The notes beneath the pieces were generated by a model. It saw nothing but the letters and a program-made list of their open reading frames with translations, ran no database searches and was not told the origin of the DNA. The position numbers and the translations under genes are program-made. A stretch of 58,631 bases of DNA, taken from a virus. Its lineage: Duplodnaviria > Caudoviricetes. The DNA lies in the IMG/VR virus record IMGVR_UViG_3300037510_000677, positions 1-58,631 of that record; one strand, written 5' to 3'. Shown piece by piece: positions 24,765 through 54,404 of the stretch (position 1 is its first letter; every line of letters starts with the position of its first letter).

Positions 24765-26723
24765 TTAAGTTAAATTTAAAACGTAATATGAAATGAACCA
24801 CTTGACCGTACTGTCGCCAGCTGTAAAGTCTCCACCCGTATTACTAATGAAAATTCCTAGGTTTACCGTGTCTGTTGCCAAGTTGTTGGTTAAAGTGCCG
24901 CCAGCTGCAATAACGTGGTTAGCCGTAGAAGATATTAAGAAGCCTGCCGCAATGGTTCCAGAAGCATGAGTGCCGCCAGCATTTGCCGTATCGCCATATT
25001 GGAGCGAAATACCACCGCCGCCTGAATATTGCGTTGTGCCGTAAACAATCTCATACCAAGAATCAAGAACCACGATTAAGGTGTTAGCACCTTGCGCAGC
25101 AATTAACTCCACTGGGTCAGTACTCATGAAGAGCAAATCTGCCGAGCTTAACGTGCCACTTGCAAGCTGAACCGTGTTTGACCATTGAAGTGTGGTAACG
25201 TTGCCGGCAATCGAGGCAACCGTTGCGGTTTGCCCAACCGTACCTGTTGCATTTGGATACTGAAGGTTATAACTTGAACCGCCTGTTGGTGGCCCATATA
25301 AGCCAACATAGTTTGCTGAGGTGTTATCAAATACCCGGACTTTTCCAAAACCTCCGCTAGAGGCAACCGCTAAGCTTCCCGTTCCTTTACAGAACAAGTA
25401 AGCATCAACGTTTGTATCGGTTCCCGTTAAAGACACTCTTGCTGCTGCTGCAGCACCACTAGCTCCCGCTTGACCGCCGCCTAACACGAAATAGTTAGTA
25501 GCAACCCCTTGGGTAACAGGCGTAATGCCTAATTGTTGGAAACCTGCAATTGAAAAGAAAATCGAATCCGTGGCTGCATTGCTGTAATACATCCCGCTAT
25601 TGTTAACAGAGTTAAACGAATAGGTAGGTGCATTGACAGAACCATCCGATAAACGGATAACGCTTGCCGCAGCAGCGGATGTAATAATCCCAGTGCCACC
25701 AATCGTTACTTGCGAATTTTGCGTTAACTGTCCACCCGTTGTGTTCCAGGTAGCAATAGCATTTTGAGTGGTTGCCCCTCCAACGCTTACATTGCCAGCT
25801 GCAACAAACGATAAAACACCAGCCCCATTCGTTGATAAAACGGTGCCATTTGCGCCATCGGCTGTTGGAAGTGTAAAGGTAACGGTTGCCCCAGCATTAC
25901 CGCCTAAAAGGCCCGTATAATGCGTTTGAGCAGCATTCCAAAACTTAACCAATCCGCCTTCTGCGCCCGCTTGCGCAGGTAAAACGCTAACGCCGCCAGC
26001 CCCAGAAGGAAGCAGCCCAATATCAATATCAGCGTCTGCCCCTTGGGTGTAGAAGAAGGGCATAGAGCCTGTAGCAGCCCCAACGACTGTTAAAAAGTTA
26101 ACAGCATTATTGGCGGAGTTAACCTCAAATTGCGTGCCACCTTGTGCAGCAAAATCAAGAATGTAACCGCCTGAACTAAAAATCCCGGTGGTTAAATCAC
26201 CCGTAAAGGTGTAAGAAGGCGCGTTAACACTGCCGTTATCATTAGAGATATAAGCATTGTTTGGAATAGTGACGACACCGGTGTCACTAATTAAAACCGT
26301 TGAGTTTTCAAGCGCTGTTCCAAGAGCATTGCCCCAGCGGACAATCCCGTTTACCGTCGAAGCCGCTGGTCCTACAACAAATCCCCCAGGAGGAGCTGCT
26401 GCAAAGGTTACCCAATTGCCTGCTTGATAAAATTGGAAAGCATCTAAATCTGTGTCATAAACTTGAAAGCCTTCCGTTACATTCAGCGCATCTTTTTGCG
26501 CAGTCGTCATTCTAGCGTTTAACAAACCACCTAACGTGGATTGCAGCTCTAAAGCAACAGACACTGGCACCGTTTGACCGTTTACAACAACCGTTGTAAG
26601 GCGTGGAGCACCATCGCTGCCCCACGCTGGTAAACCATTACCAGCAGGAGCCGTATTAACGCTGTCAGCAATTAACTGACCTGTTAGACCTACCCCAGAT
26701 GGGGCCGCTAAATTAATAGCCAT
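24765..26723 (-). CDS. Fibre protein (head or tail fibre)
   Basis: RMTTAQKDAL...YDTD module, duplicated GSVNAPxYxF, TLPTADG. Confidence 0.75.
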   Translation of the reverse strand: MAINLAAPSGVGLTGQLIADSVNTAPAGNGLPAWGSDGAPRLTTVVVNGQTVPVSVALELQSTLGGLLNARMTTAQKDALNVTEGFQVYDTDLDAFQFYQAGNWVTFAAAPPGGFVVGPAASTVNGIVRWGNALGTALENSTVLISDTGVVTIPNNAYISNDNGSVNAPSYTFTGDLTTGIFSSGGYILDFAAQGGTQFEVNSANNAVNFLTVVGAATGSMPFFYTQGADADIDIGLLPSGAGGVSVLPAQAGAEGGLVKFWNAAQTHYTGLLGGNAGATVTFTLPTADGANGTVLSTNGAGVLSFVAAGNVSVGGATTQNAIATWNTTGGQLTQNSQVTIGGTGIITSAAAASVIRLSDGSVNAPTYSFNSVNNSGMYYSNAATDSIFFSIAGFQQLGITPVTQGVATNYFVLGGGQAGASGAAAAARVSLTGTDTNVDAYLFCKGTGSLAVASSGGFGKVRVFDNTSANYVGLYGPPTGGSSYNLQYPNATGTVGQTATVASIAGNVTTLQWSNTVQLASGTLSSADLLFMSTDPVELIAAQGANTLIVVLDSWYEIVYGTTQYSGGGGISLQYGDTANAGGTHASGTIAAGFLISSTANHVIAAGGTLTNNLATDTVNLGIFISNTGGDFTAGDSTVKWFISYYVLNLT

Positions 26724-26735
26724 AAAGCCTCCAAA

Positions 26736-27647
26736 TTAGGGTCCATTGCTACCGTAAGCTGCTCGGAAGTTAGATACCCCAAAACTGTATCTTTCCACAG
26801 CTTTTGCAAGTAAGTTGTCGGTACTAAATTCTGTGTAAACGTCAGTTTTAACTGGTGTTCTAACATAATGTTTAAACCCATCTGGCGCATCTGTGAGCAG
26901 GTACCAAGCATTAGGTTGGTATGGTGTCAGGTATTGGTTAACCCGGTAACCTTGTGGAACCATCTGCAAGTTGTAGAGCGCATTGATGTCATTTAGTTGC
27001 GTACCAACGCGGAAAGAAGATTGGAGCAATCTTTCAGCGGTAAATTGTCCTTGTGGAGGTACAATCAATTTCAAAGGTTTAGTTTGGATGATAAGGCCTG
27101 CTTGGTCTTTGAATTGCTGAACCGTCACAATCGCGGCTTCTAAAGAAGCTTCAGATAAGTCCGCTTGTACAACGGGGGTATTAGCAACAACGCCACCTGC
27201 TGTAATCGGGTGATTCAAAGAAAACAATGGCTGACCGTCACCAATTGGGAAGGCTGCATTAAAGCCATTGTTAAGAATTGAAGCGCCTAAAATTTCCTTG
27301 GTCTGAGCTAAGGATTTCTTTAAAGCTCTAACCATTAATGGGAATTTTGACTTGTAAAGGTTGTCTTCCATTGCTTGTTGCGTAATCGCAAAGCTTAATC
27401 CGACGAACTTATGAACATAAGAAGTCGTGATAGCTTGTTGCATGGAATCAACTGCGGTTGGCGCACCTTCTGGACGAATTTGCGCAAGCCCTAGCATCTT
27501 CATTTCTTCTTCGATTTCAACCGCTTTATCTGAGTGGTAGACTTCGAAAATTTCCGACCATTGTGATGGGTACTGTGGATAGTCCCCGAAAACTGCGGCT
27601 AATCCAGGTCGTAAGAGATTAGCGATTTGAGTAGTATTAATTGCCAT
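26736..27647 (-). CDS. Major capsid protein (Mu gpT-like, HK97 fold)
   Basis: LRPGLAAVFG..Y, EDNLY, GDGQPLFS..HP, LIVPP, KAVERYSFG. Confidence 0.88.
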   Translation of the reverse strand: MAINTTQIANLLRPGLAAVFGDYPQYPSQWSEIFEVYHSDKAVEIEEEMKMLGLAQIRPEGAPTAVDSMQQAITTSYVHKFVGLSFAITQQAMEDNLYKSKFPLMVRALKKSLAQTKEILGASILNNGFNAAFPIGDGQPLFSLNHPITAGGVVANTPVVQADLSEASLEAAIVTVQQFKDQAGLIIQTKPLKLIVPPQGQFTAERLLQSSFRVGTQLNDINALYNLQMVPQGYRVNQYLTPYQPNAWYLLTDAPDGFKHYVRTPVKTDVYTEFSTDNLLAKAVERYSFGVSNFRAAYGSNGP

Positions 27648-27650
27648 TTC

Positions 27651-28367
27651 TTATACCCCTACCGTGCCAGTGCCACCCTTGTATGGATGGTTGTTGATAA
27701 TGACTAGAACGTTATTGAAAACGCCTGTGATGATTCCCCCGTTATTGGCGTAAGGAACCTGGGTTGGAGTTGGATTTGGCTCAAAATCAACGATTTTTAA
27801 GGCTCTGGTAGCATTCCCTGTAGCAATTGTTGCTTGGTCTAAAAAGACTGCTGATTTGCCCGTTGTGGTCGAGCCCGTTAATGGATTTGAAGGTGGTGTA
27901 TAAGCGCCGCCCGGGCCATTAACTGCATTAAAAGAGTTAGGATTTGCACCGATTGCCCAGTTTGCATTGCTGTTAAGGTCTGCAATGGTTGCACCGATTG
28001 CATTAGCAGGATTTCCATTAATAGAAACCTGAATGCTATAGATGATATTTGGGTCGTCAGTTACAAAAGCGGTTGCATAGCCGCCAGCTTGCACAGCAGT
28101 TCCTGCTGTCCAATAAGCTGAAAAATTATAATTGCCATTAACGTCGTACCATTCAACGCCTTGGAAGGAACCTAAAATAGGATTACCATCACCAGCGGTT
28201 GCAATTCCGATAACGCCGTTAGCAAGAAGTGTTACGGGGTCTCCGGTGAAAAGAGAAGTACCGTATGCAGAAGTAATTCGATATTGACGCGTTTGGTTGT
28301 TCCAAGTGGAACCGCCTAGATAATAGCGAGGCTGCAGACCAAACGGCGCATTAACGCCATAAGCCAT
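27651..28367 (-). CDS. Capsid-associated / decoration protein
   Basis: APFGLQP...Y.I.S.YGT.LFTGDPV...DDPN; start re-called at ATG 28367 with GGAG RBS. Confidence 0.7.
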   Translation of the reverse strand: MAYGVNAPFGLQPRYYLGGSTWNNQTRQYRITSAYGTSLFTGDPVTLLANGVIGIATAGDGNPILGSFQGVEWYDVNGNYNFSAYWTAGTAVQAGGYATAFVTDDPNIIYSIQVSINGNPANAIGATIADLNSNANWAIGANPNSFNAVNGPGGAYTPPSNPLTGSTTTGKSAVFLDQATIATGNATRALKIVDFEPNPTPTQVPYANNGGIITGVFNNVLVIINNHPYKGGTGTVGV

Positions 28368-28444
28368 GGAAAAATCTCCAATGTCTGCTATCTGTGAAGA
28401 TAAATAGCAATAAATTTTGAACAATTACGCTTTCGCGTATCCGC

Positions 28445-28578
28445 TCTGATTTATGGCTCAGACAACCGGAGGGTTTTCCCTCGACCGCTTAGCAGCTCAG
28501 GCCCGCTGTTGCATGATTTATGGCTCACACAAAACCTGAGAGTTTCCTCTCGGCCGTTTAAAGACTCATGCCCGTCTT
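28445..28578 (-). ncRNA. Tandem structured RNA motif (two three-hairpin units) in the capsid leader
   Basis: Units 28510-28578 and 28445-28508 show compensatory stem changes and conserved loops GGGC(A/C)TGA and GCCATAAA. Confidence 0.65.
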
Positions 28579-28682
28579 GGTCGGCGTTTTTAATGAAGGA
28601 GTAGAAGGTCGCAGAAAATAAGGTAAAAACTGCGAACCTTTAAATCTCTTGCAGTACGCCGGAAACTGCCCGAGATTCTTTT

Positions 28683-28710
28683 ATTGTATCAACCGAAATG
28701 AACCTTACAA
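28683..28710 (-). promoter_or_regulatory. Sigma70-like promoter for the capsid genes
   Basis: TTGTAA-N16-TACAAT. Confidence 0.5.
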
Positions 28711-28716
28711 GTGCAT

Positions 28717-29241
28717 TTAACCAAAAGTTGATTTTTTATTTCCCTGACTCCATCCGGTCTCATTAACAATGGGTCTTGCTGGCATCGTGGGGTCTCCCAT
28801 CATGGTTTTTAACGCTGGCAATCCTTCGACTTGATCTCTCATCCAAGCCTTGGATTTTTCTACCCAGTTTTCGGTAAAGACTCTTGGCCTTTCACAAAGA
28901 ATAGCGCCTTTATAAAAGATGCATCCAGCAAATTGATTATGAATTTTGACATCTTTGTTAAAGAAGTAATCAGGATGTCTGTCAGCAGGAACTGTTGTCC
29001 ACCCTCTTCGCATGGTGTCAGACCAGTTACCTTGGTCAAATTCATCACGAATAAAGGCGCGTTTCCATGCATATTCCCAACCCCAGGGGATAATTTCTTG
29101 CGGAATATCTAGCGGATTACCAAAGGCCATGTTTTGAACTTTGTTAAGCTCTGCAATGCGTTCTTCTAATCTTCTTCTGTCATCTGCGCGGCTGTCTCGT
29201 TGTTCTCTTTCGCCGCGAATTAAATCTCTATCTTTAGACAT
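28717..29241 (-). CDS. Conserved head-module protein
   Basis: LDIP...GWEYAW.R...GW..VPADRHP...ILCERP; lies between scaffold and capsid genes. Confidence 0.75.
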   Translation of the reverse strand: MSKDRDLIRGEREQRDSRADDRRRLEERIAELNKVQNMAFGNPLDIPQEIIPWGWEYAWKRAFIRDEFDQGNWSDTMRRGWTTVPADRHPDYFFNKDVKIHNQFAGCIFYKGAILCERPRVFTENWVEKSKAWMRDQVEGLPALKTMMGDPTMPARPIVNETGWSQGNKKSTFG

Positions 29242-44730: not shown

Positions 44731-45777
44731 TTAATCCTCTTCCCTTTTAGAAAATTTCATCTTTGACCTTTTGCTAGATTCCCCCGTTTCATCAGCTGCC
44801 TTCTTTTTAGACTCAAATGCTTTTAACATCATTCCAGTTGGGTGAGCTAATGTTCCATTCGTTAACATTTGGATGCCGCTTTCTCTAAAGTGCTCTATAA
44901 ACACAGACGTAATCCTTGTATATTCCATGTTTAATTTCTTTAATGACGGCATCTGCCTTAAGGCCATAACCGCTTTATCATCAATATGGTTATGGCTTAG
45001 GTCAAGCTCAACCAAACTGGTCATGTTGCTATAATCCATCAATCCGTCAGAAAATATAGAGTTTTTTCCTAAATTAAGCACCTCTAGAATGGAATTATTG
45101 GCAAAAGCTAAAGCCCCCTCTGAACCAATGTTGTTTTTATATAAATTAAGCTTCTTCAATGACGGATGAGTCGCTAAAATTTTTGCCCCCTCATCTCCAA
45201 TCTGATTTTCCCCAAGATTCAAAGAGGTTAAATTCTTCATCTTCATAAAATAGGGCACTATCTCTGCTCCTGCCGGATTAGGCCATGCAAATGATTCAGG
45301 TAATCTCATGAATTGCTTGCCAACCCATACTTCCTCTAATGTATCGTTAAATGGAAGAGCAGCTAGCCCTTCCTTGGTGATAAGATTATCTATCATCGAT
45401 AGGGACTTGATGCTTCGATTATTGCGAATAATGTCATAAATATCCTTGTCTTCAACAAAACAGCTTGAAACACTCAATTTAACGATTTTTTCGTTCCGAG
45501 CCAGGATATGACCCCTATCTTTAATCGAAAACCCATATAAACATAATTCTTTTAGATTTAGCTCAGATAGCAATAGAACGCCATTATCGCTTGGAACATA
45601 ATCTTCACCATTAATATAGAGATAATTAATGTGTGTGTTGGTCTTCAATGCATCAAGTAGCCCCTCTAAATCCGATTCTTCCGATATATTTAAAAATAAT
45701 TTACCATCATCAGGCTCATCTTCAGTGCCCGTATACTCATTGCTCCTAATCCGCTGTAACAATGCTTCATCTATCAT
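44731..45777 (-). CDS. Leucine-rich repeat protein (RNI-like)
   Basis: Repeats such as LTSLNLGENQIGDEGA, LKKLNLYKNNIGSEGA, LVELDLSHNHIDDKAV. Confidence 0.92.
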   Translation of the reverse strand: MIDEALLQRIRSNEYTGTEDEPDDGKLFLNISEESDLEGLLDALKTNTHINYLYINGEDYVPSDNGVLLLSELNLKELCLYGFSIKDRGHILARNEKIVKLSVSSCFVEDKDIYDIIRNNRSIKSLSMIDNLITKEGLAALPFNDTLEEVWVGKQFMRLPESFAWPNPAGAEIVPYFMKMKNLTSLNLGENQIGDEGAKILATHPSLKKLNLYKNNIGSEGALAFANNSILEVLNLGKNSIFSDGLMDYSNMTSLVELDLSHNHIDDKAVMALRQMPSLKKLNMEYTRITSVFIEHFRESGIQMLTNGTLAHPTGMMLKAFESKKKAADETGESSKRSKMKFSKREED

Positions 45778-50865: not shown

Positions 50866-50937
50866 CGTCCCTGCCCGGAATCGAACCGAGCTTTTCAGGA
50901 TGAAAACCTGGTGTCCTAACCGATAGACGACAGGGAC
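50866..50937 (-). tRNA. tRNA-Glu (TTC)
   Basis: Cloverleaf: GTCCCTG/CAGGGAC acceptor, anticodon loop TTTTCAT, T-loop TTCGATT; CCA not encoded. Confidence 0.93.
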
Positions 50938-53840: not shown

Positions 53841-54404
53841 ATGCAAGACTTTTTATTAGGTGTCTTTTTTGTCCTTCTATTGCTGTTGGCTTATTCTGCG
53901 ATGGCGGTTCCCCCTCCCGGTGGTAAACATTTAATTGTTGAGTACAACGATTGCAACCCTGAAAAGCTTAATAGCTTGCAGCAGGTTGATAATGCGCTCC
54001 AAGAAGCAGCCAGGTTAGGGAGGTTTAATATCGTAACTTCTGGCTATAAAGTCTTTAAGCCACAGGGTATTACTTATTACCTGTTGTTATCTGAATCACA
54101 TATTTCCATTCATACGTGGCCTGAGTCTTCTTATGCAGCGGTTGATATTTTTACGTGTGGAAAAGGTGATTTAACCCCCCTGGCGAGGGTAATAGGCAAA
54201 AGATTAGAATGTGAGCATGTCGAAAATCTTTTAATAGAAAGAGGCGACGGCATCGTTATACAACAAGAAGAAAGAACAAACAATGATGAAATACGCTCTG
54301 GTAGTTATCATTCCACGCGCTTACAGTCTGATGAGAGAAGAGAAGAACGGAGAGGTTCTGTATTACCGTGGGCTATCCATCGAAAAAGAATTGGAAGTCT
54401 TTAA
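53841..54404 (+). CDS. speD: Pyruvoyl-dependent S-adenosylmethionine decarboxylase-family proenzyme with N-terminal signal peptide
   Basis: GKHLIVE, F.PQGIT..LLLSESHISIHTWPE..YAAVDIFTCG (E|S autocleavage site). Confidence 0.9.
   Translation: MQDFLLGVFFVLLLLLAYSAMAVPPPGGKHLIVEYNDCNPEKLNSLQQVDNALQEAARLGRFNIVTSGYKVFKPQGITYYLLLSESHISIHTWPESSYAAVDIFTCGKGDLTPLARVIGKRLECEHVENLLIERGDGIVIQQEERTNNDEIRSGSYHSTRLQSDERREERRGSVLPWAIHRKRIGSL

Follow-up and report, generated by a model that had tools for sequence, protein, structure and literature searches.

Tandem pseudoknot modules in the capsid-gene leader of an uncultured tailed phage

The leader of the capsid genes in the virus IMGVR_UViG_3300037510_000677 (Duplodnaviria; Caudoviricetes), a complete IMG/VR virus record of 58,631 bases analysed here over its whole length (the window), raises two linked questions: which fold does this RNA adopt, and what would it do for the message that carries it? 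The leader occupies a 350-nt non-coding gap (28368-28716, minus strand) between the open reading frame (ORF) 28717-29241(-) and the ATG at 28367, and no ORF inside this gap exceeds 31 aa. It precedes a gene for a 238-aa decoration-like protein, followed by the gene for the major capsid protein. In a preliminary description, the leader had been presented as a strand-specific structured RNA not recognised as a known family, in which two tandem and covarying units, each made of three simple hairpins, lie downstream of a promoter-like element and are flanked by four further hairpins. Much of this picture stands. Every string quoted in it is found at its place on the minus strand, the promoter-like element occurs 5' of the units, the four flanking hairpins appear in the minimum free energy (MFE) fold, and covariation is present in homologous leaders. 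The fold of three simple hairpins has to be replaced, as relatives show H-type pseudoknots instead. Comparison of homologous leaders shows that the structure of the leader is made of pseudoknot modules supported by covariation.

Pseudoknot modules of the leader

Folded as a whole, the minus strand of the leader reaches -113 kcal/mol with a z score of -4.88, and none of 100 shuffled sequences is as good, versus a z score of -2.46 and 2 of 100 shuffles for the plus strand, which bears out the strand specificity proposed earlier. The two tandem units of about 65 nt (64-69 nt), A (28578-28510) and B (28508-28445), start some 100 nt past the inferred transcription start and form a direct repeat with a period of 69 nt and a column identity of 84%; as originally remarked, all three of their stems differ in a compensatory manner. 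Single units folded without pseudoknots are unremarkable (z scores of -1.4 and -0.86).

The search for relatives of the leader at the DNA level found none: blastn of the leader versus phage records gave no match, and the at least 107 single matches of a conserved 14-mer across IMG/VR were taken as chance. Nor could any locus for the 238-aa protein be confirmed when this protein was searched for alone. The leaders were therefore collected through the capsid protein, a route that is blind to the RNA. Among 600 pattern matches tested in IMG/VR at least 580 encoded capsid-protein relatives, as did 128 of 216 pattern matches from metagenomes, and the best 80 of each source were kept. The start of the 238-aa protein was placed by a regular expression for its conserved N-terminus in 95 of 161 sequences, the start in leader L117 being set by hand, and 72 leaders were left after dropping duplicates and short flanks. 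The exact loop motifs of the window do not occur in 80 relatives, which indicates that the conservation concerns the structure and not those strings.

What recurs in the leaders is a hairpin of 4-5 bp (P1), an A-rich linker, four bases complementary to the P1 loop, and then another hairpin. As judged from covariation, the P1 loop and the four bases just 5' of hairpin 2 form an H-type pseudoknot, PK1, with P2 as the helix thus created. The count over 30 units (18 leaders) gives 117 paired cells out of 120 for P1 and 118 out of 120 for P2, the two helices occurring in 19 and 15 distinct versions, respectively. With partners shuffled among units, the means were 69.7 (P1) and 75.6 (P2) paired cells, and none of 2000 shuffles equalled the observed values. 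The loop and tail strands of P2 read GACC/GGUC, GACA/UGUC, UACC/GGUA, GCGA/UCGC, GCAA/UUGC, AAGG/CCUU, ACCG/CGGU or GGUA/UACC in the relatives, and GGC/GCC (unit A) or GGCC/GGUC (unit B) in the window, where they amount to 3 bp and to 4 bp including one G-U pair, respectively. Nine G-U pairs occur in P1 and P2 together. The linker contains 50% A over 213 nt and most often ends in AAAC (13/30 units), while the loops L1 and L2 take 13 and 16 forms among the 30 units.

Since the units and their registers were set by hand with the pairing in view, controls independent of this placement were added. In a register-free test, 28 of the 30 loops had a 4-bp complement within the tail of their own unit, compared with 172 of 660 pairings with tails of another P2 type. 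An alignment made by MAFFT only (A4, 7 units) gives 90.5% paired for P1 and P2 versus 13-43% with slid partners, 5 of its 9 pairs changing on both sides. A structural descriptor comprising P1, an A-containing linker, P2 and an adjoining hairpin matches 43 times in the 18 leaders, as compared to 3 matches on the reverse complement, 11 on the reversed sequence and 0-7 in 20 shuffles. This descriptor is a tightened one, a looser pseudoknot descriptor having been discarded for its failure to discriminate (100 matches versus 96 on the reverse complement and 101 on the reversed sequence). Two other alignments, A6 (MAFFT, 25 units) and A5 (made with a covariance model), put loop bases in inconsistent columns and were not used for counts. 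Several candidates were dropped from the 30-unit table as false or different, namely L240:139 (a plain 7-bp hairpin), L110:1699-1779, L117:1071, L197:271 and L245:1145, the last showing PK2 (described below) via its other helix. Units found later stand outside the counts; they belong to L281 (three), L287, L290, L292 and L294 (two each, by eye) and L300 (two). By eye, L287, L290, L292 and L294 carry an extra UACC/GGUA unit about 70 nt 5' of a GACC-type unit, and the P1 of this extra unit differs between L287 (AGAG/CUCU) and L290 (CGAG/CUCG).

Hairpin P3, with 23 distinct stems, begins at 0-1 nt from the end of P2 in 26 of the 30 units, whereas with shuffled tails this holds for 5.8 units on average and for 13 at most. 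It is followed by GGU(U) and by a hairpin H3, the loop of which begins with GCC, ACC or CCC and ends A-rich, as in the window (GCCAUAAA). In an alignment of 12 units built by MAFFT only (A7), the ensemble of P3, PK2 and the H3 stem is 80.4% paired versus 25-47% when slid, with a covariation score of 0.508 compared to 0.238 in shuffles (0/500), and the 3-bp GGU/GCC helix is 83% paired. The GGU after P3 thus probably pairs with the start of the H3 loop to give a second, smaller H-type pseudoknot, PK2, which is less secure than PK1; variants recognized by eye are GGG/CCC and AGU/GCU in L245, and GGUU/AACC in L196 and L199. The outer stem GGCC...GGTT formerly assigned to hairpin 2 is better read as two separate pseudoknot strands, GGCC being the 3' strand of PK1. 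The complementarity GGC/GCC formerly pointed out between loops 1 and 3 does exist in the window, but the relatives do not keep it: among 12 full units, three show a Watson-Crick match of 3 bp and none a match of 4 bp. The script behind this count assigns H3 in L196 and L199a otherwise than the manual reading does. As side observations, the P3 of unit A is followed by a U-rich tail and is listed as a weak terminator-like site by a consensus scan, and in L111 (1753-1775) the P3 of the second unit is followed by CGUUUUU, possibly an occasional attenuator and not a general one.

With respect to known RNA families, a search of the whole window against Rfam 15 at gathering score returned only the tRNA gene at 50866-50937(-) (52.5 bits), and at E <= 10 the region 28300-28780 gave three chance-level rows (E 1.6-8.3), in line with the earlier remark that no known family was recognised. 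Type III toxin-antitoxin RNAs (ToxI-like) consist of near-identical short tandem repeats located beside an endoribonuclease toxin gene; such an antitoxin was set aside, the two units being 84% identical with a 69-nt period and the neighbours being decoration-like and capsid genes. A CRISPR-like repeat and a CsrA sponge were dropped together with it: the repeats are not identical, a partner gene is missing and the loops do not keep GGA. A catalogue of structured RNAs from IMG/VR (2023) includes five candidates typically located 5' of a major capsid protein family (PMC10690425). No description of the present motif was found in the literature searched, including the available text of PMC5737381 and PMC10690425, and an overlap with these five capsid-upstream candidates is possible.

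Distribution among related phages

Depending on the lineage, the leader position is occupied by distinct elements. Among relatives with a capsid-protein identity of 68% or more, each of the 15 non-redundant leaders has one or more PK1 units; the units occur in tandem, at 1-4 copies per leader. Among the 72 leaders, 18 possess pseudoknot units of the window type and 9, from an AT-rich clade, possess PK1 followed by GGUU and H3 without P3, both classes being assigned by eye; in 37 leaders the position is taken by plain hairpins, two or three in number, whose UYACGUAY loop is conserved, and 8 leaders have neither element, both classes being assigned by script. In the AT-rich clade (57-61% capsid-protein identity), the descriptor matches 10 times, versus 0 times on the reverse complement and a mean of 0.1 in shuffles. 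The element is kept, with compensatory change, across lineages with 57-79% capsid-protein identity.

A model built from the units, R1, which lies close to its seed sequences and recovers near relatives only, matches solely this leader in the complete relatives G001 and G002 and in the 58%-complete G003, except for one match with E 0.7 in G002. In the window, a further R1 match at 26573-26598 (17.6 bits) was judged to be chance, being inside the ORF 24765-26723. A DNA pattern based on PK1 picked out 27 IMG/VR stretches, 8 of them with 4/4 P1 pairs, and each of the 7 examined loci with 4/4 P1 pairs is followed by a homologous pair of decoration-like and capsid genes; three of these loci are on contigs already in the set. 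Six cultured distant relatives (34-45% identity) show the same gene order with only 14-78 nt at the position of the leader, which suggests that the long leader comes with an internal promoter, i.e., with a new mRNA 5' end. No cultured model system is thus at hand among these six relatives, all devoid of the long leader.

The plain hairpins of the sister clade amount to 104 in 37 leaders, with 12 distinct 4-bp stems. They are located about 60-200 nt 5' of the decoration-like gene, two or three in tandem (L119-L155, L210-L248 and others); their 8-nt loop contains a palindrome of 4-6 nt and a UCGAYG-like flank is found 5' of the hairpins. In L128 they come after a strong terminator and, by eye, a TTGACA box. 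These hairpins may represent a separate RNA motif, either bound by a protein or engaged in kissing interactions.

Gene context of the leader

The features of the leader and of the neighbouring genes are collected in the table below. The promoter-like site is the sole one detected by a consensus scan on the minus strand within 24-32 kb, and predicts a transcription start near 28676; comparable sites also occur 5' of the units in leaders L113 and L201.

Table. Features of the capsid leader and its surroundings in the window
Feature	Position	Strand	Remark
Gene for a 174-aa protein, Arg/Glu-rich N-terminus	28717..29241	minus	no family match
Promoter-like site TTGTAA-16-TACAAT with TG extension	28683..28710	minus	9/12 consensus matches
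Two upstream hairpins, 28678-28642 and 28640-28605	28605..28678	minus	MFE fold
Unit A, PK1: P1 28578-28574/28565-28561; loop 28573-28566; linker UAAAC 28560-28556; GGCC 28555-28552	28552..28578	minus	GGCC strand pairs with loop GGC
Unit A, hairpin P3: GAGAG-GAAA-CUCUC	28538..28551	minus	directly after the PK1 strand
Unit A, probable PK2: GGUU 28536-28533; hairpin H3 28531-28510, loop GCCAUAAA	28510..28536	minus	GGU-GCC pairing proposed
Unit B, PK1: P1 28508-28505/28496-28493; loop 28504-28497; linker 28492-28487; GGUC 28486-28483	28483..28508	minus	GGUC pairs with loop GGCC
Unit B, hairpin P3: GAGGG-AAAA-CCCUC	28469..28482	minus	
Unit B, probable PK2: GGUU 28467-28464; hairpin H3 28462-28445, loop GCCAUAAA	28445..28467	minus	
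Two downstream hairpins, 28446-28419 (GAAA loop) and 28403-28388	28388..28446	minus	MFE fold
Shine-Dalgarno GGAG 28379-28376 and start codon 28367-28365	28365..28379	minus	first capsid-module gene
Gene for a 238-aa beta-rich protein	27651..28367	minus	first gene served by the leader
Major capsid protein gene, Mu gpT-like / Phage_capsid_4	26736..27647	minus	directly after the 238-aa gene

Among minor features, the last unit is followed, both in the window (28419-28446, minus strand) and in L112 (about 1623-1650), by GCGGAUA and a hairpin with a GNRA-type tetraloop, the stem sequences of which differ, and a CAGAU(U/A)A string occurs about 15-20 nt 5' of the Shine-Dalgarno sequence in several leaders; both were noticed by eye.

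The 238-aa protein belongs to no Pfam family and corresponds just to PHROG 37556, the function of which is not annotated. Its AlphaFold model has a pLDDT of 78, the top Foldseek rows are auxiliary chains of capsid reconstructions with E values of 0.015-0.26 only, and the ESM Atlas gives a lead to cement families (0.81). It is likely to be a capsid decoration or cement-type protein, and "decoration-like" is used here as a lead. Some 25 kb of structural genes on the same strand are located downstream of the leader. The 174-aa protein is syntenic just 5' of the leader in both the pseudoknot and the hairpin clades; a different gene occurs there in the AT-rich clade, so that the 174-aa protein does not track the type of element.

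The sequencing runs that contain the DNA of the record carry a soil metagenome label (six runs listed). The sole RNA library, the soil metatranscriptome X6, contains a single contig of 174 nt, identical to positions 27075-27247 within the capsid gene, for which a carry-over of DNA is possible; the leader is devoid of RNA coverage in this library, which yielded that one contig and says nothing for or against transcription. A search for the host by contigs of metagenome-assembled genomes matched 4 contigs and indicated no host. Elsewhere in the window, a leucine-rich-repeat protein (LRR_6, E 2.8e-22) and an S-adenosylmethionine decarboxylase-like protein (E 3.6e-30) are encoded at 44731-45777(-) and 53841-54404(+), respectively.

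Possible function of the pseudoknot array

The leader would be the 5' untranslated region (5' UTR) of the capsid-shell mRNA, which encodes the decoration-like protein and then the major capsid protein. The explanation tentatively preferred here, to which we assign a probability of about 0.4, is that the array consists of cis-acting pseudoknot obstacles shielding the capsid mRNA from 5'-end-dependent decay. Such an array would act in cis and without a small-molecule ligand. Its coaxially stacked pseudoknots, placed ahead of the ribosome-binding site on the way from the 5' end, would physically hinder the scanning of RNase E or the progress of an RNase J-type 5'-3' exonuclease; the shielded message would in turn give a higher yield of the proteins that the phage needs at the highest copy number. 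Two modules lie between the inferred 5' end and the ribosome-binding site. Nearly all the conserved nucleotides of the modules are used by the fold, as paired strands and A-rich linkers, and L1 and L2 vary, which speaks for a role of the shape itself rather than for a ligand pocket.

According to the available passages of PMC9943677, the scanning of a 5' UTR by RNase E is impeded by H-type pseudoknots to an extent that follows the number of their coaxial base pairs, whereas ordinary stem-loops are bypassed; the obstacles were heterologous viral or telomerase pseudoknots in E. coli reporters. The leader resembles these constructs in having compact coaxial pseudoknots between the 5' end and the coding region. 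Each PK1 of the window stacks 8 pairs coaxially (5+3 for unit A and 4+4 for unit B), as many as the smallest of the obstacles tried in that work, with P3 abutting PK1, and PK2 offers 8-10 pairs. The leader differs in that those passages describe no natural phage leader array, and protection by the leader is a proposal.

A bolder version, which we regard as unlikely, would make the modules phage counterparts of the exonuclease-resistant RNAs (xrRNAs) of flaviviruses and plant viruses, i.e., self-sufficient tandem devices that mechanically stop RNase J or the scanning RNase E. Pseudoknotted viral RNA arranged in tandem mechanically blocks the bacterial RNase J1, as stated in the accessible part of PMC5760640, and the two systems share an apical loop that pairs with a downstream sequence, together with tandem copies, the block by xrRNAs being mechanical. 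Nevertheless, the same source places xrRNAs in the 3' UTRs of eukaryotic RNA viruses and gives them a three-way junction and a ring fold, which surrounds the 5' end and halts 5'-3' exonucleases. The leader modules match them neither in sequence nor by an Rfam model, and the structures supported here are pseudoknots.

Several observations weigh against a protective array. The largest sister clade (37/72 leaders) has tandem plain UYACGUAY hairpins instead, which, by the available passages of PMC9943677, would not stop RNase E and would rather suit a protein operator. The Shine-Dalgarno region is mostly paired in 16 of 18 leaders under a nested-only folding model, a hint of regulation rather than of simple protection. 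P3 often starts with GAG (9/30 units), a conserved feature for which the fold does not account, and PK2 rests on 3 bp, of which only 2 change on both sides. Finally, the 30 units and their registers were placed by hand with the pairing in view, and the descriptor was written post hoc.

The main rival is an operator, a protein-binding element controlling capsid output having already been suggested in the preliminary description. In an operator, the tandem modules would serve as cooperative sites for an RNA-binding protein that tunes the translation or stability of the capsid mRNA to the protein pool, the binder being either a phage protein (possibly of the capsid module and then autogenous) or a host protein, e.g., a ribosomal protein; we consider this possible, on balance rather doubtful. 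The tandem arrangement with 1-4 copies per leader and the purine-rich GAG start of P3 fit an operator, and the motif is found only at this leader (R1 in G001-G003; the 7 examined pattern loci). The UYACGUAY loop, kept in all its 8 nt over 104 hairpins and 12 stems, is typical of a loop read by a protein; but the helices of the pseudoknot clades vary freely and the conserved bases there are explained by the fold, and three element types at the same site would need repeated co-evolution with a protein. The frequently predicted pairing of the Shine-Dalgarno region, which in the MFE fold of the window involves the CCCUCC arm of the unit B P3, also goes in this direction, but the partner is inconsistent, the 3' arm of P3 playing this role in just 4 of 18 leaders and other sequences in the rest. 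No RNA-binding candidate was found among the 36 window ORFs scanned against Pfam. A precedent exists in the gene 32 of phage T4, where a single pseudoknot nucleates the binding of the encoded single-stranded DNA-binding protein. This leader pseudoknot gives autogenous control, as reported in the available text of PMC10690425, and the likeness extends to a highly expressed phage gene under post-transcriptional control; the capsid leader differs by its two double-pseudoknot modules.

The other explanations fare less well. Antitermination similar to that of the put sites of phage HK022, in which the nascent modules would bind the host RNA polymerase and resist pausing or termination over the long structural operon, seems quite improbable. 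As described in the accessible text of PMC9378689, putL and putR measure about 70 nt, are located directly after the promoter or about 270 nt downstream, and form a V of two long stem-loops, the first of them containing a triplex; they bind the beta-prime zinc-binding domain of RNA polymerase and suppress termination. A module of about 65 nt just after a promoter does resemble these cis-acting RNAs, and about 25 kb of same-strand structural genes come after the leader. However, put occurs at early promoters, is not tandem and has no pseudoknot, a word missing from that text, whereas the covariation of the units supports short interleaved helices. Moreover, terminator-like sites are not enriched downstream (17 vs 11.5 +/- 3.5 expected), no terminator follows the capsid gene, and the put mechanism gives a tandem duplication no role. 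A tandem riboswitch, each PK1 being a small aptamer of the preQ1-I type for a metabolite, is very hard to credit, and the riboswitch-like character suggested in the preliminary description is accordingly unlikely. PK1 shares with this type its small H-type fold, a P1 of about 5 bp, a short P2 and an A-rich third loop, and tandem aptamers are known; but the ligand-contacting loop nucleotides are conserved in preQ1-I riboswitches, whereas the would-be ligand loops of the units are paired or variable (L2 and L1 with the 16 and 13 forms given above) and lack the conserved pocket nucleotides. In addition, the preQ1-I (RF00522) and fluoride (RF01734) riboswitch models have 0 matches at E <= 10 in the whole record, no other Rfam family stands out at this threshold in the region 28300-28780, no expression platform overlaps the units, and the gene context is capsid, not metabolic. 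Hardly any weight goes to the remaining set of explanations, namely a DNA-level element such as iterons or protein-binding repeats, a functionless recent duplication, or a multimerising RNA comparable to the pRNA of phi29. The direct repeat of 69-nt period and the complementary loops 1 and 3 of the window would suit them, but the helices are interleaved and covary, unlike palindromic DNA sites; G-U pairs are present in P1 and P2, the A-rich linkers are on the sense strand only, and the element is kept with compensatory change over the whole range of capsid-protein identity quoted above. The idea of a multimerising RNA rested on the pairing between loops 1 and 3, and it loses its support with the failure of the relatives to keep this pairing.

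Whatever its role, which is probably to protect or to control the capsid message, the motif is a well-supported structured RNA without a catalogued family, occupying a fixed place in a large uncultured phage clade. Should the pseudoknots of the leader protect the message, they would offer a natural case of a principle so far shown with engineered reporters, according to which pseudoknots, unlike hairpins, block RNase E; they would also correspond, in a phage, to the xrRNAs, and would supply a compact part with which to stabilise mRNA in bacteria. If the modules were truly xrRNA-like, they would form a naturally occurring class of RNAs that block decay, so far undescribed in phages and widespread in soil and freshwater viromes, and would give the capsid message a privileged lifetime. 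If they were an operator, they would reveal a post-transcriptional control of the stoichiometry of the capsid shell. In this respect, the sister clades, which place different tandem elements at the same site, provide a natural experiment in the replacement of one element by another.

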